Translations under genes and position numbers: made by a program
Assembly (NCBI RefSeq): GCF_008189525.1
Contig: NZ_CP043314.1
Location: forward strand, 510,001 to 542,000
Direction: 5' to 3'
DNA from: Candidatus Saccharimonadota bacterium
GTDB lineage: Bacteria; Pseudomonadota; Alphaproteobacteria; CAJXXZ01; 1604HC
Length of the DNA: 32,000 nt
The notes under the pieces: generated by a model
What the model saw: only the letters and a program-made list of their open reading frames with translations
What the model was told of the DNA's origin: nothing
Databases searched by the model: none
Shown here: one piece after another, positions 4,930 to 15,703 of the stretch
How positions within the stretch are numbered: position 1 is the stretch's first letter
Layout of the letters: the number at the start of each line of letters is the position of its first letter

Positions 4930-5165
4930 CAAATATAAGTATAATTAAAAATCTCCAAGTTAGGTAGTTTTTTGAATTTTTATAAGCACTTTAAATAATA
5001 TGCTCTGCAAAAAATCTCCTCATAGTATAAGCTATCCAAATTAACTTAATAGCTTAACTTCTATCAAGCGTAAAATTAATATAAGTGTAAAAAATCTGTA
5101 ATACTTAGCTCAAGACCACCAAAATACCTAGAATAAATTAAAAAAGCGCATATAATCAATCTCAT

Positions 5166-5237
5166 GCTTCCTTCGTCTAGCGGTTAGGACACTGCCCTCT
5201 CATGGCAGAAACAGGGGTTCGATTCCCCTAGGAAGTG
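5166..5237 (+). tRNA. tRNA-Glu, anticodon CUC
   Basis: Hand-folded cloverleaf. Acceptor stem is GCTTCCT/AGGAAGT with a G1.U72 wobble. D arm is GTCT-AGCGGTTA-GGAC, typical of tRNA-Glu. Anticodon stem is CTGCC/GGCAG with loop C-T-CTC-A-T (anticodon 5199-5201). Variable loop is 4 nt. T arm is AGGGG-TTCGATT-CCCCT. Discriminator is G. No CCA is encoded. Confidence 0.85.
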
Positions 5238-5409
5238 TTTTACAATTAATTTTACATAACACGTACATAAAAAAGTAGAAATTTAAATTAAAATATAATT
5301 ACATTTCAGTTTTATTTTAAATCAATTTATATTTAATTTAATCTTATTATGAACTAATTTATCAATATTTATTTTTCATTAATATACATTTGAGTTATAA
5401 TATCACTCT

Positions 5410-7281
5410 ATGAAATCTATTAATTTCTTATTATTGTGTCTTTGCGCAAATCTAACAAATCCTATTAATTGCTCTGGAATAGGATCTGAAATGCCTGGGC
5501 TGCAGCAATCTACAAGAGATCCTAGTTCTGAAACAAGCGCCAGTTCTATATCAGGCAGAGCTGCTGGAATAGAATTAGAAAGCAGTGAATTCAAAGCAAA
5601 AAAACTTTTAGAAGCAAATGAATCTAAAGTTATTTTTGATGGAAAAATCTTTAGATTAGAAATAGATACAGCAGATGGCAGGTTTGCATCAGTTACAGGT
5701 GGTGCCCCAAGCTATGATCTAGAGTTGCTTACAGTAGGAGGGTTAAATGAATTACAGTCTTCTGCGTTAGGTAAATTTTTTACAAATTTCTTCAAAGCAC
5801 TGACAGAGATAGTAACAGATCATGGAAAAAGTTTAGACAAAAACACAAAAACTTTTGAAATTAATCCAGAAACATTTCAAGCAGTATCACAAAAAGCTCT
5901 TGAATCAGGTAGTTTTACTGAGGCAGAAAAAGAATTAATAGAAAGAACACTCAAAGATTCAAGTGAATCAGGAGAATCAAAGTTTAAAACCAAAGCCAAT
6001 GTTCTGTATCAAGAGCCTACAAAAGGCTCCCTAAACACAGAAGCAAATCTACAAATGTCACTTTCATTTCCAATGGAACAATTTTTAGGGATACTAAACA
6101 AAGATCTGTCTCAAAACATTGAACAAAGAATCAGAGAACAAGTAGTCAAAACAGAGGATTTAGAAAATATTAGTGATAGATTAAAGCTTATGAATTTAAA
6201 TCCCCTTGTAGTCAATCCATTCGCAGTTGCAAATAGCGAATTAAAAACACTAGATGATACAGGGGCAGCAGCATTCGTAAACAGAGCAAATGCTTTTAAA
6301 ACCTTATTTACTAAAAAGGACGAACTATCTTTGGATGAAAAGATTAAGAAACTTAACGAAGATATAAAATCTTTGGAAAAAGAACAAGAAAGTTTCATGA
6401 AAAAGAATAATTTTGATAAATACGATGAAAAGGGTGCAGAAATCACTGAAGCTAGAAAAGCGCTAGAAAGTCTAAGCACTGAAACTGATCCAAGGGAAGA
6501 TCTACTGAAGCAATCAGCATTACTATCTGAGCAAGATATAGATTCTAGTGCACCAATAAAAGATAAAATCAAATCAATTATTAATAAAACAGGATTTTCT
6601 ATAGAGTCAAGTAAAAAAATACAAGAATTTATTGCTCAGCCATTGACAGTATCTGAAGACATATTTAAACAATCTAACAATCCAGCCGATAATCTCTTTG
6701 CCTTATTTTCACTTTATGTAAGCGATCTATTTTTAGCACTTCCTAGAGAATCAAAAGAAATAGGGCCTAAAAGCATGATTGCAGTCATGTCTAGAATGCC
6801 ATTTTCGGATATGTATAGATCTCTAAATGAAACAGACAAGGATAAGTTCCAAGACCTATACACAAAGCATTTTGCTAAATTTGGGGGACTTCTAATAAAT
6901 CCTTACAATCTAGGAAAAGATGCGTCAGAAGCTAATCTGATATCTAGCAACAAACTAATAACTTTGGATACGTGGTTTGACTCAATCATAACAAAGCCGA
7001 TAGTTTGGGCTGCTGATGGACCATATGTAAATAACAACGTCATAGATATTCTACACCCTCCAGCAGATTTATATCCTGGATATGGTATGGGAGCTATAAG
7101 ACCTGAAGAAGGAAATGGCTTACAAGGCAAAGCTCTTGTAGAAATCAGAACTGTACATGATAGGGTTAGTAAAATATGGGAAGCCTATAGTCACCAAGTA
7201 AAAGATTTGGACATCTCAGAAAAGATGATATCATTGGTGTTGAAGGGGTTTTTCGGAACCACAGCAGAAGGAGATCAATGA
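5410..7281 (+). CDS. Hypothetical secreted protein, 623 aa, no recognisable family (ORFan A)
   Basis: Long uninterrupted ORF. The N-terminus MKSINFLLLCLCANLTNPINCSG looks like a Sec signal peptide and has no canonical lipobox. The rest is acidic and hydrophilic with K/E-rich coiled-coil-like stretches (KKLNEDIKSLEKEQESFMKK). The C-terminal roughly 200 aa are more globular (…VWAADGPYVNNNVIDILHPPADLYPGYGMG…). Ends in a TGA that overlaps the next ATG. Confidence 0.75.
   Translation: MKSINFLLLCLCANLTNPINCSGIGSEMPGLQQSTRDPSSETSASSISGRAAGIELESSEFKAKKLLEANESKVIFDGKIFRLEIDTADGRFASVTGGAPSYDLELLTVGGLNELQSSALGKFFTNFFKALTEIVTDHGKSLDKNTKTFEINPETFQAVSQKALESGSFTEAEKELIERTLKDSSESGESKFKTKANVLYQEPTKGSLNTEANLQMSLSFPMEQFLGILNKDLSQNIEQRIREQVVKTEDLENISDRLKLMNLNPLVVNPFAVANSELKTLDDTGAAAFVNRANAFKTLFTKKDELSLDEKIKKLNEDIKSLEKEQESFMKKNNFDKYDEKGAEITEARKALESLSTETDPREDLLKQSALLSEQDIDSSAPIKDKIKSIINKTGFSIESSKKIQEFIAQPLTVSEDIFKQSNNPADNLFALFSLYVSDLFLALPRESKEIGPKSMIAVMSRMPFSDMYRSLNETDKDKFQDLYTKHFAKFGGLLINPYNLGKDASEANLISSNKLITLDTWFDSIITKPIVWAADGPYVNNNVIDILHPPADLYPGYGMGAIRPEEGNGLQGKALVEIRTVHDRVSKIWEAYSHQVKDLDISEKMISLVLKGFFGTTAEGDQ
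7267..7273 (+). promoter_or_regulatory. Shine-Dalgarno site (GAAGGAG) for ORFan B, lying inside the 3' end of ORFan A
   Basis: GAAGGAG sits 4 nt upstream of the ATG at 7278. That ATG overlaps the TGA stop of ORFan A (ATGA at 7278-7281). This is the clearest SD I saw in the window. Confidence 0.7.
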
Positions 7282-9011
7282 CCAAGAGAGTAAGTTTGAA
7301 TAGCATTTACAATATCGCCAAGCATTTAATGTTTGGGTTAGTTTTCACAAATATCCAGAATATAAAATGTGGAGATGATACTGATAGATTCTGCAAATCA
7401 CTTTCAACAGCAGCTCAATGTGGAAGAGTTGTAGAATTTGCACAAATGTCAGAATACGATCAAAGAATATACACTAAGATGTCTTCCAGAATTGGATTTA
7501 GCAAATATAGCAAAGAGGCTTGCAAATCTAGCTTCCTAGGATTAAAAAGAGAAACAACAGATTCAGGATTAAATGAAGAAAATGTTTGCAAAACATTAAG
7601 ATTTCTAATAGATGAAGTAAAAGTAGATTCTAGGTTTGCGCTTAAAGATGGAGAAAAAAGGAAGCAATTCGAAAGCAGCTCAAGTGAGCCTGAGGACGTG
7701 TCAGATTTAGCTGCAGATGAATTATTGAGAAAGTACCAAGAATCAGAACCACATGAAAGATCTGATATGAAAAAACGATATCTTATATATAAATACTTAG
7801 AAGCATACAAGCTTCATATAAGAAAAAACAGGGATTTTAGGGACTCAGACCACAAAGATTTGACAACAATATTCAGAAATATGGATCTTTCTATTCAAAG
7901 ACACATGACCTCTCTATCCGTTTGTGCCAAGGAAGCAAATGAAAAGCAAACTTTACTTACATTAGAGAAAATGAATACTTCTGTTCAAGAAAGATTGAAT
8001 AAGTTTCTTAGAAATTACTTTACAGAAAGTTTAGAAGCATTTAAAGAAAATATCGAAAAAAACAAGAATATTGGCTCAGAACTTAAACTTTTAGATGAAA
8101 GATACAAAGTAGATCTTGAAAATATAGAATATATTGAAAGCACTAAACAGGTTATTAAAAACCTTGAGATACAAATAAATACCTCTGAACACAGAAAGAC
8201 CTATGCAATTCTTAAAGCTAACTTTCTTACTTTTAGAAAAAGTCTTGAGAAGCTTCCAACACTTAAAGATAAGCTTGAATTTAATAGTGAAATGGATCTT
8301 GAAAGCATTATAGACCTTAAGAAAGAATTGAGCTCAAAGATCGAGCTTAACTTACTAGACTACTCCGCAAAACTTTCAGAAATGTATACACATAAATGGA
8401 CAGCGCAAATTTTTCTAAAAGGGTTGGAATCTAAAGAAAAGAAAGATGAATACACATTGGATCTTTTCAAAGATTGGGAAGAAAAATTCTGGAACATGAT
8501 TAACTCTAAACAATCAGAAAAAAATGAAGATTCAAGATCCAACAAGAGAACATCAACATATAAAAACAATACATTATTAAATATGTTTCAAAACTCTAAT
8601 GAACCCTCAAGCAGCTCTACAGAAGAATCTCCAAAATCTAAACCTTTGGTCAAATTAAGCTTAAAAGCGGAAAATGAAGCAATTTTAAAATCTTATAAAT
8701 CACTTAAAGAAGCAAATGTGAAATTAGAAACAACTAATAAAATTCTGGATATATATTTCATGCTTCATTCTAGAAATGACTCAGAAGATGCAAGCGATGG
8801 AAAAGAAATGACCACAAGCTTAGAACAAAAAACATATTCTTCTAGCGACATAAAATCAGAGAGCATGCCAAAAGCAAGCACAGATGAAGCAAAAATTACA
8901 ATTGAAGATTTATTAAATGAATTAGATCTTTTGGATATAAAGTTTGAAGGAAAGAAATACGTACAAAATTACGCAGCATTGGCAGCAAACTACGCAAAAG
9001 TATATCCTTGA
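7278..9011 (+). CDS. Hypothetical protein, 577 aa, no recognisable family (ORFan B). Has an N-terminal Cys motif and is otherwise K/E/S-rich and coiled-coil-like.
   Basis: Long ORF, translationally coupled to ORFan A. Weakly hydrophobic N-terminus (IAKHLMFGLVFT). This is followed by CGDDTDRFCKSLSTAAQCGRVVEF, then long helical heptad-like K/E/L-rich sequence and an S/E-rich low-complexity region. Confidence 0.75.
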   Translation: MTKRVSLNSIYNIAKHLMFGLVFTNIQNIKCGDDTDRFCKSLSTAAQCGRVVEFAQMSEYDQRIYTKMSSRIGFSKYSKEACKSSFLGLKRETTDSGLNEENVCKTLRFLIDEVKVDSRFALKDGEKRKQFESSSSEPEDVSDLAADELLRKYQESEPHERSDMKKRYLIYKYLEAYKLHIRKNRDFRDSDHKDLTTIFRNMDLSIQRHMTSLSVCAKEANEKQTLLTLEKMNTSVQERLNKFLRNYFTESLEAFKENIEKNKNIGSELKLLDERYKVDLENIEYIESTKQVIKNLEIQINTSEHRKTYAILKANFLTFRKSLEKLPTLKDKLEFNSEMDLESIIDLKKELSSKIELNLLDYSAKLSEMYTHKWTAQIFLKGLESKEKKDEYTLDLFKDWEEKFWNMINSKQSEKNEDSRSNKRTSTYKNNTLLNMFQNSNEPSSSSTEESPKSKPLVKLSLKAENEAILKSYKSLKEANVKLETTNKILDIYFMLHSRNDSEDASDGKEMTTSLEQKTYSSSDIKSESMPKASTDEAKITIEDLLNELDLLDIKFEGKKYVQNYAALAANYAKVYP

Positions 9012-9173
9012 ATCATATGAACTGTTAACAAACTTCCCTGTATCTCATAAAGACTGCCCTAGCTTATATTTACTGATACTAATTATTGTAAAATTCAACC
9101 ACCCTTATATAATTTTAAATCCACTACATAACACTAATTAAACTTTATTTATTCTCCTTGCTCTTGAAGCACT

Positions 9174-9208
9174 AACAATTAAACTTGAACAGTTATCTAA
9201 TTGTTTTT
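9174..9208. terminator. Candidate AT-rich hairpin terminator in the convergent spacer between ORFan B and miaA
   Basis: AACAATTA (9174-9181) pairs with TAATTGTT (9198-9205) and is followed by TTT. The hairpin is nested inside an outer CTTGAAG (9163-9169) / CTTCAAG (9217-9223) pair. All-AT stems of this size are common by chance in this composition. Confidence 0.25.
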
Positions 9209-9280
9209 AAGAAAAACTTCAAGCATAAAAAATAAAATTACTTACAAAGTGACTTATAAACTAAACAGCTTTATAAAATT

Positions 9281-11018: not shown

Positions 11019-11067
11019 ATTTTTAGTATTTTCTTTTTTGCAATTATAGCATAATATTTATTTTGTT

Positions 11068-11140
11068 GGGCCTGTAGTTCAGCGGTTAGAACGCATCGCT
11101 TATAACGGTGTTGTCACAGGTTCGATTCCTGTCAGGCCCA
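11068..11140 (+). tRNA. tRNA-Ile, anticodon UAU (reads AUA)
   Basis: Hand-folded. Acceptor is GGGCCTG/CAGGCCC with discriminator A, the acceptor typical of bacterial tRNA-Ile. D arm is GTTC-AGCGGTTA-GAAC. Anticodon stem is CATCG/CGGTG with loop C-T-TAT-A-A (anticodon 11101-11103). Variable loop is TTGTC. T arm is ACAGG-TTCGATT-CCTGT. No CCA is encoded. Confidence 0.85.
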
Positions 11141-11208
11141 TTTATTAAACTTACTAAATTAAACATGCACTAAACAAAACTTCATTATCATGATATTCAA
11201 TAAAAGAA

Positions 11209-12564
11209 GTGATATTTAGCAAAGAGATTTTTTTCAAGACATTTGGATTTTATCCATCTAAACAGTTTTCTGGAATAGAAATAGATAGCAGGAAAGTTAA
11301 ACCTGGGAATATATTTTTCTGCATAAAAGGAAAAATAAATGATGGACATGATTTTGCTAAAGAAGCATTAGAAAAAGGAGCTTCTTATATTGTTGTTTCA
11401 AAGCCTATATCTATTGCATTTCCTGCTCCTGAATCTATTCAAGACACTCATACTAAGCTTAGCCCACACAATGCCAGTTTTAATCATGGCTTGGTTTATA
11501 AGACAGAATTAATAAAAGAAAATCAAATACTAACAAAAGATACAGAAGAAGTTCTGACTAGATTATTAATAAACTTAAGAAACTCAATTAAATCTACTAT
11601 ACTAGCAATAACTGGAAGCTGTGGAAAAACATCAACGAAAGAGAAAATATTGTGTGCATTCAAAGAAAAAGACATACTAGGCACTCCAGGAAATTATAAC
11701 ACTATACTTGGACTAGCAATATTTCTGTCTAGTATAGAAAAAGAACCTGAATACTTAGCACTTGAGCTTGGAATTAATAAACCAAACGAAATGGATGAAA
11801 TATCTGCGATAATAAAACCACACTACAGTATAATAACATCCATAGGTCCAGCTCATATTGGTAATTTCAAGAATGTAAACCACATAAGATCAGAAAAGCT
11901 CAAAATAGCAAAACATACACAAAAAATAACATTTGTACCAAAAGATACAAATAAAGCTATTATAGAGACTTTAAATTGCTCTGTAATTAAGGAAGAAGAC
12001 CTGAAAAGCAAAACCCTAGATTCTTTAGCAGATCAAGACTTTACCCACAATGCGATATTAAAGATATCAGATGAAGAAAAGCTAAAACATGCAAGAAAAA
12101 ATATCAAAAGTTATTCAACACCAAAAGGAAGAAATAATTTAGTAAAAATAAAATTCGATGACAAAGAAATCACTCTAATAGATGGAAGTTATAACTGCAA
12201 TCCAATGTCATTACAATTTTCCCTATCAAAACTTGAAAGCTTTTCTATATATAACTGTAAAAAAGAAAATATAAGAAAAATAGCAATAATAGGAGAAATG
12301 AAAGAGCTAGGAAAGCATACTCAGAAATATCATGAATTAGATTTAAATTTCAAAGGATTATTAATACTTTTAGAAGAAACACCAAATCTTTGGAAAACTA
12401 AAAAAGGAATGATTTTTAAAGATTGGGTACAAATATGCCATTTCTTAAAACAAAACATACAAGACAAAGATGTGATTCTTGCAAAAGGAAGCAACTCGAC
12501 TGATATAAAAAAAATAACTCAATGGATAGAAGATTTGCAGAAAAGTAAATATTCCATAAAATAA
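11209..12564 (+). CDS. murF: UDP-N-acetylmuramoyl-tripeptide--D-alanyl-D-alanine ligase
   Basis: N-terminal IDSRKVKPGNIFFCIKGKINDGHDF, Mur-ligase P-loop ITGSCGKTSTKE, and the MurF-type motif DGSYNCNPMS. Sits directly upstream of mraY. Apparent GTG start at 11209. Confidence 0.88.
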   Translation: MIFSKEIFFKTFGFYPSKQFSGIEIDSRKVKPGNIFFCIKGKINDGHDFAKEALEKGASYIVVSKPISIAFPAPESIQDTHTKLSPHNASFNHGLVYKTELIKENQILTKDTEEVLTRLLINLRNSIKSTILAITGSCGKTSTKEKILCAFKEKDILGTPGNYNTILGLAIFLSSIEKEPEYLALELGINKPNEMDEISAIIKPHYSIITSIGPAHIGNFKNVNHIRSEKLKIAKHTQKITFVPKDTNKAIIETLNCSVIKEEDLKSKTLDSLADQDFTHNAILKISDEEKLKHARKNIKSYSTPKGRNNLVKIKFDDKEITLIDGSYNCNPMSLQFSLSKLESFSIYNCKKENIRKIAIIGEMKELGKHTQKYHELDLNFKGLLILLEETPNLWKTKKGMIFKDWVQICHFLKQNIQDKDVILAKGSNSTDIKKITQWIEDLQKSKYSIK

Positions 12565-12580
12565 ACACTCCATAAGAAAA

Positions 12581-12602
12581 AATACTCTACAAATACTCTA
12601 CA
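12581..12602. repeat. Perfect 11-bp tandem duplication (AATACTCTACA x2) in the murF-mraY spacer
   Basis: Read directly: 12581-12591 is identical to 12592-12602. Confidence 0.8.
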
Positions 12603-12751
12603 ACTTACAATTCAAATCAATAATTCAGAACAAGTTTATATGCACTAAAACAATTTAATTGTAAGATATAAATATAATTTTTTCTGTTTGGCACACTATA
12701 GCTATGCAATGATAGTTTTATGTCTAATTTTATAGAAAGAGGGCAGTAATT

Positions 12752-13873
12752 ATGTTTTTATACTCCAGTTTTATTATAGAACTAACCAATGAAATCACAA
12801 AGGCAGCAAAAAGACTAATGCCATTTAAAGTATCAGCAGATTCTGCTATGAATTTCTTTATATCATTCTCAATATACTTAATTCCTATTATATTTTCTTA
12901 CCTATTAACCAGATATTCTATTTCTGCATTCCTGTCAAACAAGAGTAATAATGCAAAATTTTCGCAACCAATATCTAAATTCATAGAAGCTCACAACAAG
13001 AAGAATGTACCAATTTTTGGCGGTGTGTTTATGCTCATATCATTACTTATCTCTACTTTACTAATAATTATAATGAAAAATTTATTGCATACATTTTGCC
13101 CATCTTTTTTTATAATCTTTAGAAAGTTAACAATATTTTCTATGCAATCTCTTTTTCCTGTATGTCTAGCAGTATCCTTTGCAGCAATAGGATTTATAGA
13201 TGATTTACAAAAAGTAAAATATAGAAAAAATTCTGCAATGAGCGCCAAAACAAAATTTTTATTACAAATAATTACTGCTTCTATTTGTGTGATTCTATTT
13301 AGAAAAGTAAATCCTTTATCAAATCTGTCATATATAGATAAAATTTCTACTACAAGCAGCAGTGACTTGAATTTTCTAAGCTTAGCATGGCAAGTATTTG
13401 TAATAGTAGGAACAGCAAATGCTGTAAACTTAACTGATGGAATTGATGGATTGGCTGGGAATGTTTCTAAGATATGTATTATATTGCTAGGATTTATATC
13501 TAATAAAAATGCATATCTATGTTTTTGTATGGTAAGCATAATTAATGCTTTTTTGAGATTCAATAACAATCCAGCAAAAATTTTCATGGGAGATACTGGA
13601 TCTTTGCTATTAGGCTCGTTCATGTCTGGAGTGGCTCTAGAATCTGGTGTCGAATGGACATTTGCTATTTCAGGAGGAGTATTTATTATGGAGACATTAT
13701 CTGTGATTTTACAAATAGCTTCAGTCAAATTGTTCAAAAAAAGAATTTTCCCAATAACTCCTATACATCACTACTTCGAAAAACATTATACAGAAAAAGA
13801 AATTGTATATTATGCCAAGAAAATCACTTTATTTCTTTCTTTCATTGCATTAATGATTTCTTTATTGAATTAG
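12752..13873 (+). CDS. mraY: Phospho-N-acetylmuramoyl-pentapeptide transferase
   Basis: GFIDDLQKV, NAVNLTDGIDGLA, FMGDTGSLLLG and PIHHYFEK motifs. Polytopic membrane protein in the murF-mraY-murD order. Confidence 0.92.
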   Translation: MFLYSSFIIELTNEITKAAKRLMPFKVSADSAMNFFISFSIYLIPIIFSYLLTRYSISAFLSNKSNNAKFSQPISKFIEAHNKKNVPIFGGVFMLISLLISTLLIIIMKNLLHTFCPSFFIIFRKLTIFSMQSLFPVCLAVSFAAIGFIDDLQKVKYRKNSAMSAKTKFLLQIITASICVILFRKVNPLSNLSYIDKISTTSSSDLNFLSLAWQVFVIVGTANAVNLTDGIDGLAGNVSKICIILLGFISNKNAYLCFCMVSIINAFLRFNNNPAKIFMGDTGSLLLGSFMSGVALESGVEWTFAISGGVFIMETLSVILQIASVKLFKKRIFPITPIHHYFEKHYTEKEIVYYAKKITLFLSFIALMISLLN

Positions 13874-13981
13874 CCTTTTAAATACTTACACACATTATTA
13901 AATTAGTTATATTTGGATAAATACTGACAAAATATTTATTAGCATATATAGACTACAAAAATTTAAGTATAATCGCAGTAT

Positions 13982-15703
13982 ATGAGTGGTTATTTAATCC
14001 TTGGGCTGGGCATTTCTAACTTAGGAGCTGTAAAGCTTCTTACAAAGCTACAAAAGAAAATATTTATCTGGGATGACAATTTGGAATTAACTAAGCTTGT
14101 ACACAAAAAATATCCAGGAACCATAGTGTTCGATGATTCCTATGAACCTGAAATTAAATTTGTAGTTCTTAGTCCTGGTATTAAAAGCCATAAATTTCTG
14201 TATGATTCAAAGATAAAACTAAATGAAGTGGATTTATTATTTAAGTTTAACAAAATCAGACAGGCTATAGGATGTACAGGAAGCTTTAACAAAACTACTA
14301 GTGTTCTCAATATATCCCAAATCATGAATTTACATTATGAGAAATTATATATCTCTGAAAAAGAAAAACGTAAAGATACAAAGCTAAAAGAAACCTCAGA
14401 AAAGAAAAACAATCCAGACAAAATTATACATTGTGGAAACATAGGCATTTCCTGTTCTTCAATAGAATCAGATAATGTGATTGTAGAACTTTCTTCTTAT
14501 CAGCTTGAAACTATAAAAAATGCTCATTTTGACTTAGGAATAATCACAAATATAAAACCACATCATTTTGACAGATATGATAATTTGAAAGACTATAGAA
14601 ATGCTAAATTCAATTTAATGAATATGAGCAAAAAGGTGCTTTTAGATTATGAACTACTAAGTGATGCAAAGCAATTTCTAAAGCCAAACCTAACGCAAGA
14701 TTTACACTCAAACGTAAAACTATCTAAATTATCTAAACACTATGAATCAAATAAGCCTATGAATCAAAATGAAAGCACAAATTCAAAAGAAATGTTACAC
14801 AAAGTCCCAGAAATACTTACCATGTCTTGCTCAGAAACAGATGCAGATTTCTGTTTTAAAATGGGGAAAATATATGAAAATGGACAGGAAGTTCTTCAAA
14901 TAAACTCTAGCAATGATTCTAATGAAATCAATGCTGATATAAATACAAACAAAAATGTAAATTATACCAGTGAATCTACTAATATAACCGATATAAATCT
15001 ATGCACATATGCTGCATGTAGGATTCTAGGATTAAGTCCTAACTTTATACTGGATAGCTTTGCAAAGTTAAATCCTTTAGAGCACAGAAGAGAGAAATTA
15101 GCACACAAAAGTAAATTTATTGGAGAAATAATAAATGATAGTAAAAGCACCAACTTAATATGCTCAAGGCACATTATAAAAGGGTACACAAATATTATCT
15201 GGATAGCTGGAGGGAAGCTCACAAGAGATTTAAAATCACTTCACCAAAACCAATTAAGTATAAATCAACTAAGCGCAGATTTGCATGGTACAGATTCACG
15301 AAAACATAAAGAAAAGGCAGAATTTTCAGAGGGGATCTTAAGCAATACTGAGACAGAGCAAGCTGGATTTTCTATAGAAACTTTTCCTTTTAAAAACATA
15401 AAAAAAGCATACTTCTTCGGTGAAAATTCTTCACTAATGCATGAAATTTTTAAAAACGAAATAAACTGCGAAATCAAAAAAGATCTGAATGAGATTTTTA
15501 CAAATATAAAAGAAATAGTTGAAAATCAGAAAATTGCAAAACAGCAAAATTGTGAGAATTCAAAAATAAACATAAAAAAAGAAAAACAAACTAGCTTAGA
15601 TAAAATAAATATAATTTTTTCTCCAGGCGCACCATCTCAGGATATGTACAAAAATTTCGAACAAAGAGGCAGACATTTCAAAGATATATTTAGTGGATTT
15701 TAG
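13982..15703 (+). CDS. murD: UDP-N-acetylmuramoylalanine--D-glutamate ligase, unusually long (573 aa) because of several low-complexity inserts
   Basis: N-terminal ILGLGISNLG, plus ELSSYQLE, HHFDRY, HRREKL, INDSKSTN and the C-terminal FSPGAPSQDMYKNFEQRGRHF. The P-loop reads TGSFNKTT. Gene order also supports the call. Confidence 0.85.
   Translation: MSGYLILGLGISNLGAVKLLTKLQKKIFIWDDNLELTKLVHKKYPGTIVFDDSYEPEIKFVVLSPGIKSHKFLYDSKIKLNEVDLLFKFNKIRQAIGCTGSFNKTTSVLNISQIMNLHYEKLYISEKEKRKDTKLKETSEKKNNPDKIIHCGNIGISCSSIESDNVIVELSSYQLETIKNAHFDLGIITNIKPHHFDRYDNLKDYRNAKFNLMNMSKKVLLDYELLSDAKQFLKPNLTQDLHSNVKLSKLSKHYESNKPMNQNESTNSKEMLHKVPEILTMSCSETDADFCFKMGKIYENGQEVLQINSSNDSNEINADINTNKNVNYTSESTNITDINLCTYAACRILGLSPNFILDSFAKLNPLEHRREKLAHKSKFIGEIINDSKSTNLICSRHIIKGYTNIIWIAGGKLTRDLKSLHQNQLSINQLSADLHGTDSRKHKEKAEFSEGILSNTETEQAGFSIETFPFKNIKKAYFFGENSSLMHEIFKNEINCEIKKDLNEIFTNIKEIVENQKIAKQQNCENSKINIKKEKQTSLDKINIIFSPGAPSQDMYKNFEQRGRHFKDIFSGF

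Follow-up and report, generated by a model that had tools for sequence, protein, structure and literature searches.

Several described systems place the gene for a secreted enzyme upstream of the gene for its cognate partner. Secreted enzymes paired with an inhibitor or immunity protein include AprA-AprI of Pseudomonas, NucA-NuiA of Anabaena and toxin-immunity pairs that act in the periplasm (for example Tse1-Tsi1), and in the LipA-Lif pair of Pseudomonas and Burkholderia the gene for a Sec-exported enzyme precedes a coupled gene that encodes an all-helical partner with an N-terminal hydrophobic anchor. Here we analyzed two adjacent genes, open reading frame (ORF) A and ORF B, which lie at positions 5410-9011 of a 32,000-nucleotide stretch of contig NZ_CP043314.1 (510,001 to 542,000, forward strand; this stretch is called the window, and coordinates are counted from its first letter). 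Alignments over the full length of ORF A assign it, as a divergent member, to an unannotated family of enzyme-like and putatively exported proteins, and ORF B is a true orphan that occupies the slot in which relatives of ORF A carry a small partner gene. A secreted enzyme with a downstream cognate partner is a known organisation; the protein family of A, that of the partner and the distribution of both seem not to have been described before.

The two-gene cassette formed by family gene and partner gene resembles the enzyme-inhibitor pairs in that an enzyme-like gene comes first and a coupled gene second, in that the partner is small, acidic and fast-evolving with a signal-peptide-like N-terminus, and in that the cassette often lies on mobile DNA. 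The cassette proteins share no sequence or fold relation with AprA-AprI, NucA-NuiA or Tse1-Tsi1, however, and the first cassette gene has a Sec signal of its own, unlike cargo of the type VI secretion system (T6SS). In the window the second gene also departs from these pairs, being a neutral orphan of 577 amino acids (aa) without a clear signal peptide. The order of the two genes and the small size and variability of the second one are compatible with polymorphic toxin-immunity systems. In size, in helicity (predicted at a pLDDT of 36) and in its weak N-terminal hydrophobic segment, the modelled B may be closer to a membrane-anchored helical partner such as Lif than to the small partners; A lacks the lipase motif GxSxG, though, and B has no similarity to Lif.

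A and B are 100% identical to hypothetical proteins of Candidatus Nesciobacter abundans, a member of the Holosporaceae that lives as a cytoplasmic endosymbiont of the diplonemid Diplonema japonicum and has a 616-kb genome (George et al., bioRxiv 10.1101/719211). According to the parts of that preprint cited here, D. japonicum houses two endosymbiont species, and N. abundans has very few pseudogenes, 44 predicted signal-peptide proteins and a reduced type II secretion system/type IV pilus (T2SS/T4P); T6SS effectors are stressed for this species, and hypothetical genes make up 22-50% of the source genome, with many putative secreted proteins among them. A and B are annotated only as hypothetical proteins, and the same parts of the preprint do not describe the A family, its motifs or the two-gene cassette. 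A UppS-based scan of genome contigs returned unrelated bacteria only and retrieved neither Nesciobacter nor Cytomitobacter. Reduced endosymbiont genomes keep few genes, so that two intact non-housekeeping genes of about 600 codons each are likely to matter for the symbiosis.

Both genes are on the plus strand. ORF A (5410-7281) encodes 623 aa and ORF B (7278-9011) encodes 577 aa, sizes that agree with those first given, and reading frames of this length cannot be due to chance in DNA of 30% GC. The stop codon of A and the start codon of B overlap in the sequence ATGA (7278-7281), and a Shine-Dalgarno (SD)-like GAAGGAG (7267-7273) is contained in the final codons of A and precedes the ATG of B by 4 nt; both features are read directly from the sequence and support translational coupling. 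A survey of 22 starts in the window found a 6-nt SD-like match (AAGGAG) for B only, the rest having none or a 4-mer, which bears out the remark in the preliminary description that most other genes in the window have no visible SD site. The start of ORF A itself has no SD-like match in this survey.

ORF A has distant relatives and is therefore no orphan: with A and B joined end to end as one query of 1200 aa, an exhaustive HMMER scan that covered 1.84 billion representatives detected 36 of them, with E values from 1e-12 to 9e-4. All 36 align to residues ~385-616 of A and none aligns to B. When A was aligned with 23 of the longer relatives, homology extended over its whole length. Hidden Markov models (HMMs) built without A scored 37.2 bits on its N-terminal module (aa 53-230; 5000 local shuffles reached 10.7 at most) and 124.4 bits on the C-terminal module (aa 424-588; 5000 shuffles gave 10.6 or less), and the best phmmer match to the C-terminal module had an E value of 1.2e-12. 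A retains all 12 invariant columns of the family and 22 of the 24 nearly invariant positions, the two departures being N103D and G428N. By these alignments A belongs over its full length to a family that is represented elsewhere by at least 36 clusters, so the earlier statement that the pair is lineage-specific does not hold for A.

The earlier impression that both proteins match nothing was right for the standard resources and wrong for A in the exhaustive scan. Searches of Pfam, NCBIfam and PDB (phmmer) with A and B gave no match, and word-indexed homolog searches with A, with B or with the family alignment returned the query itself alone. No family match came from Pfam with every member and with consensus sequences, or from NCBIfam with every member; PADLOC and PHROGs had nothing for the family, the partners or B, and no known toxin domain was found in Pfam, NCBIfam or PADLOC. 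When the PDB was searched with profiles of the entire family and of each module, the matches were confined to designed helical proteins and a ribosomal protein, a Foldseek search with the poor model of A (pLDDT 36) gave nothing at E < 0.2, and a literature search on the family motif strings found nothing. There was likewise no match to the family in a tblastn search against plasmids, a viral-contig scan and a first metagenome scan.

The sequence of A is divided into two conserved modules separated by a variable linker. The N-terminal module (5566-6099) contains GIELESS (GxExETS in the family), DTAD (DTxD), LELLTVGG (NLExKTxGG) and LQMSLSFP (RPQITYQLP). The C-terminal module (6679-7173) contains LFxxYxxxLF, EIGPK, MSRMPFSDMY, W522..S525, DILHPP, YGMGA and ALVEIR, for which the family motifs read GLxxLFxxYxYxLF, EPGPK, IMSRxPFSxMY, W..S, DLLSPPP, YSMGA and ALIExRGYS, followed in the family by WFF. 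The K/E/S-rich linker (aa 231-423; 6100-6678) is the longest in the set, with a motif-to-motif distance of ~245 aa against 82-200 aa in the relatives, and it includes a segment (aa 301-334) whose crude a/d-position heptad score of 0.755 is borderline against the shuffle null of 0.75. Residues that are invariant in the family comprise E, D, K, R, S, Y and W, and neither a His nor a Cys is conserved. Both modules are rich in such acidic, basic and aromatic positions, the signature of an enzyme and not of a structural protein, and together these residues look like an active site. A PD-(D/E)xK nuclease reading of the D...ExK pattern was dropped, as the column of the 'K' holds K, R, L, H or M.

The N-terminus of A (aa 1-21, MKSINFLLLCLCANLTNPINC; 5410-5472) has the features of a signal peptide, as had been noticed before. 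By a hydropathy heuristic its KD10 value is 2.58 at residue 4, with K2 ahead of the hydrophobic segment and small residues before S22. A strongly hydrophobic N-terminus is conserved across the family, since 15 of the 21 other full-length members (16 of 22 with A) have one, unlike cytoplasmic controls. No lipobox of the form [LVI][ASTVI][GAS]C was found in A, its cysteines 10, 12 and 21 being preceded by LLL, LCL and PIN. Both proteins had been described as acidic; this is true of A, with an isoelectric point (pI) of 5.0, and not of B, with a pI of 7.1.

The genes next to the relatives of A were examined in 13 distinct loci, from eight relatives and six metagenomic loci of which five are distinct (labelled L082 onward). 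In 11 of the 13, a small co-oriented gene directly follows the family gene, and the suggestion in the preliminary description that the pair might be an effector with its partner fits this arrangement. The small partner proteins are 114-163 aa long, and all 11 have strongly hydrophobic N-termini (KD10 2.1-3.1; 2.54-2.93 in the four added later); the pI of the seven measured is 4.3-5.3. Family gene and partner gene overlap by up to 8 nt or are up to 41 nt apart, except that the overlap is 16 nt in L092 when the start of the longest ORF is taken, and L089 has the same 4-nt ATGA overlap as A and B. A site of the GGAG/GAGG type precedes the partner gene in six of the first seven loci and in L093, and no clear site is seen in L092, L094 and L095. 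The partners evolve fast: leave-one-out profiles recognised 6 of the 11, at 22-36 bits, and missed true partners in L082, L083, L087 and L089, which ranked 8-143 of 501. A second partner subgroup is linked by weak BLASTP matches alone (5e-6 and 2e-3). The analysis replaces what had been called an orphan pair by a protein family, with its invariant residues, and a conserved partner gene.

Cassettes were found in small genomes and next to mobile elements. In L082 the cassette lies beside rpe/hemN on a 621,866-bp contig of ~27% GC, and in L083 it lies in a 1.06-Mb genome. One cassette contig carries the conjugative genes VirD4/VirB11/TraD and another MobA/TraD/ProQ, and other cassette contigs carry IS66, resolvase, Tn3-like and integrase genes. 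The cassette was not found in the plasmid and viral collections searched. CANJLN01, a genus-level lineage of Alphaproteobacteria reported from centrohelid protists, also carries the cassette; in its loci L087 (1830-13402) and L088 the cassette is located between a ThiF-MFS-ATP-grasp-HIT cluster and three RebB R-body genes, at a distance of 3 kb from the latter. Conjugative, transposon-rich and R-body contexts point to antagonism or host manipulation. Read from the sequences, the membership of A, the conserved signal-like N-termini, the conserved cassette with its coupling and the mobile or endosymbiont contexts are established.

Several further observations were made at these loci. The ThiF-MFS-ATP-grasp-HIT cluster at L087 has the look of a pathway for a peptide-nucleotide antibiotic. 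In L083 the cassette is followed (11874-14717) by several more genes in a row whose products have signal-peptide-like N-termini and no Pfam matches on record; these include a 230-aa leucine-rich-repeat-like protein and a 368-aa protein with ...NNPCFCC..., a PCxxC motif reminiscent of deaminases. In L084 (10034-11070), and also in L085, two overlapping E/K/Q-rich ORFs of 203 and 144 aa follow the cassette; the first matches phrog_29668, a group of unknown function, with an E value of 4e-17, and the two may be one frameshifted gene. In L096 (4404-5269), and also in L097, a convergent tyrosine-recombinase gene follows 2 nt after the stop of a 550-aa family member, in the place of the partner, suggesting that a mobile element truncated the cassette.

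We propose that A and B are the Nesciobacter version of this conserved two-gene cassette, an exported effector or enzyme with its cognate partner, and give this interpretation about an even chance of being correct. The first gene would encode a preprotein in which a Sec-type signal peptide precedes the two conserved modules. The protein would be exported to the periplasm by SecA/SecYEG (a SecA gene is present in the window), might be released through the reduced T2SS/T4P of N. abundans, and would act either in the periplasm or on the host or co-resident bacteria. The second gene starts at or near the stop of the first, usually behind a strong ribosome-binding site, so that both proteins are made together, and the product of the second gene would bind A as a cognate inhibitor or immunity protein, or as a chaperone. 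The effector or toxin role of A is a step that we infer.

A number of observations weigh against this proposal. At a column of the N-terminal module where 21 of the 24 members have K or R, A has L, and A may therefore differ from its relatives in activity. The family has no biochemical or structural match in Pfam, NCBIfam, PDB, PADLOC or PHROGs, the single-sequence AlphaFold models of A and B both have a pLDDT of 36, and signal peptides were judged by the hydropathy heuristic, not by a trained predictor. Two of the relative loci have no partner: uvrB comes next in one and the convergent tyrosine recombinase in the other. B scored -7.3 against a profile of 11 partners, ranking 1447 among 1996 shuffles. 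It is four times as long as a partner and is not acidic (aa 32-130 have a pI of 8.7), and the KD10 of its N-terminus, 1.92, is within the range of cytoplasmic controls.

A wider extension of the proposal is much more doubtful, and we mention it as a speculation with little chance of being right as a whole. The A family would consist of exported enzymes of a new class, serving intracellular bacteria of protists as weapons or for manipulation of the host and held in check by a dedicated co-translated partner; Nesciobacter would have kept the enzyme and replaced the partner, or expanded it, into B, which would have taken on a new role. For the R-body 'killer trait' no protein toxin has ever been identified (review PMC11909080), and since in one lineage the cassette lies 3 kb from the R-body genes, the A family could be this toxin or related to it.

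B is located exactly in the partner slot, co-oriented with A, with the 4-nt overlap and with AAGGAG 4 nt upstream; the junction is the same as in L089 (ATGA) and similar to that of several loci in which GGAGAT precedes ATG, an argument for an ancestral start of the second gene. Neither the word-indexed search nor the exhaustive scan found a homolog of B. Against a profile of seven partners it scored -2.5 (rank 807 of 1998), and comparison with the coiled-coil genes found after the cassette at L084 gave no significant similarity (z = 1.7). The protein is hydrophilic, with one third charged residues and few prolines or glycines, and is predicted with low confidence to be helical. Long heptad-like stretches had been described for both proteins and were not confirmed: the crude score of B is at most 0.675 against a 95% null of 0.805 from composition-matched shuffles, and A has the one borderline segment mentioned above. 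As far as these profile comparisons reach, and they fail for some genuine partners as well, the Nesciobacter cassette is a case in which the second gene of a single lineage can no longer be recognised, through divergence or replacement. Such a case bears on the origin of orphan genes in shrinking genomes.

B might instead be no functional partner. The original small gene would have been lost or overwritten, and a recently arisen or decaying ORF would have taken over its start site. The lack of homologs, the lack of similarity to partners and to the L084 coiled-coil genes, the biased composition and the poor structure model speak for this. Nevertheless, the frame of 577 codons is intact in a genome of 30% GC, it has the strongest SD in the window and native codon usage, and an identical B protein is present in two independent assemblies of a genome in which the cited parts of the preprint report very few pseudogenes (bioRxiv 10.1101/719211). 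The intact frame, the SD, the codon usage and the identity in two assemblies argue that B is a real gene, and we regard its being a non-functional remnant as unlikely.

The neighbourhood in the window suggests another explanation, in which A would be a housekeeping periplasmic or envelope enzyme that serves the cell wall or membrane with the help of an accessory protein. The neighbours are envelope genes (cdsA, uppS, mur, mraY) and tRNA-modification genes, the codon usage of A and B is native, and both proteins of the usual cassette, the enzyme and its partner, appear to be periplasmic. Among the ORFs of 160 aa or more tested in the window, all except A and B could be assigned with confidence to a Pfam family (ABC, CdsA, UppS, MiaA, TrmB, Mur ligases, MraY, ThyX, SecA and others), in agreement with the earlier statement that all other genes can be named. 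The family of A, in contrast, is very rare, with 38 hits among the 1.84 billion representatives scanned; the cassettes of its relatives lie beside unrelated genes in conjugative, insertion-sequence-rich and R-body settings, and the position varies even between small genomes (rpe/hemN in L082, tRNA-Glu/miaA here). An envelope function is thus distinctly unlikely, and the description of the pair as non-housekeeping is supported.

The preliminary description favoured a third explanation, that A and B are both lineage-specific orphans and both exported or surface host-interaction factors. B is without homolog in any search, the word-indexed search returned only A for A, and A has the signal-peptide-like N-terminus. 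For A this explanation is refuted by the 36 remote relatives, the conservation of motifs over the full length and the leave-one-out profile scores. For B, export is not convincing: the hydrophobicity of its N-terminus is weak, the protein is not similar to the partners with signal peptides, and no lipobox is present, C31 being preceded by NIK. We consider it very improbable that the pair as a whole is of this kind.

The motifs of the A family also recall those of carboxylate-amine ligases, and it was considered whether the family could be a very divergent member of the glutamine synthetase (GS)/YbdK (GCS2)/amidoligase group that uses ATP in the host cytosol, the partner inhibiting it during transit. 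The short motifs and their order are alike, with an N-terminal GxExE strand (GIELE in A, LGIELE in E. coli YbdK), ExxT and a late hhExR (ALVEIR against TVEVR), and the sole local alignment obtained with hhalign falls on the GxExE motif. That alignment of the family (A1) with YbdK, whose sequence was verified against PDB 1r8g, covers 15 columns with a probability of 0.39% and an E value of 0.15, which is not significant. Neither the members nor the consensus matched a GS-like Pfam family or a PDB entry, and the conserved His motifs of GS/GCS2 are missing, so that the resemblance is at the level of pattern only. A ligase of this kind is highly improbable. Last, a TssK gene ~6 kb upstream, just outside the window, and the stress laid on T6SS effectors in the cited parts of the preprint (bioRxiv 10.1101/719211) might suggest that the A-B pair is cargo of a nearby T6SS, which we consider extremely unlikely, because five unrelated genes on both strands (MFS, ABC, cdsA and uppS among them) lie in between, A has a Sec-type signal that T6SS cargo lacks, PAAR, VgrG, Hcp and adaptor domains were not found, and the relative loci have no T6SS genes. 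At 1910-4303 of L081 (Nesciobacter OY490516.1), this TssK (T6SS_VasE) gene comes after two overlapping hypothetical genes.

Compared with the flanking genes, the A-B block is native in its synonymous codon usage and in its G+C content at third codon positions (0.23 for A and 0.26 for B), and slightly above its surroundings in overall G+C. The slight excess comes from the first codon positions, that is, from amino-acid composition. The block could have been a tRNA-integrated island, as a tRNA-Glu gene with anticodon CTC (5165-5238, plus strand; identified by ARAGORN, with 61 bits to the Rfam tRNA model) lies 171 nt upstream of ORF A, but no tRNA-derived direct (att-like) repeat was found and the codon usage is native. 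The block bears no mark of recent acquisition.

On the plus strand, a promoter-like TTTTCA-17-TATAAT (5373-5401), with a perfect TATAAT in the interval 5396-5409, ends 9 nt before the ATG of A. Together with the absence of an SD site at ORF A, the position of the TATAAT suggests that the mRNA may be leaderless or near-leaderless. Promoter-like sites are not enriched in this AT-rich region, where 14 were seen and 18.7 were expected from shuffles, and the site is not above chance. An AT-rich spacer of 269 nt (9012-9280) separates ORF B from the convergent miaA; the figures given before were 172 nt to the tRNA gene and 270 nt for the spacer. No terminator-like site, Rfam match or unusual folding (z = -1.7) was found in the spacer, and Rfam matched only tRNAs in the window.

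Two other features of the window were recorded. A 573-aa Mur-ligase-like ORF (13982-15703) matches the Mur_ligase_M domain alone, and weakly (E = 6e-10), and it is longer and more divergent than the adjoining 451-aa Mur ligase. At 11067-11141 ARAGORN identified a tRNA-Ile with anticodon TAT, which Rfam confirms as a tRNA; the anticodons TAT (Ile) and CTC (Glu) are unusual for a genome of 616 kb and 30% GC, and the UAU-Ile tRNA would stand in for the lysidine-dependent CAU tRNA.

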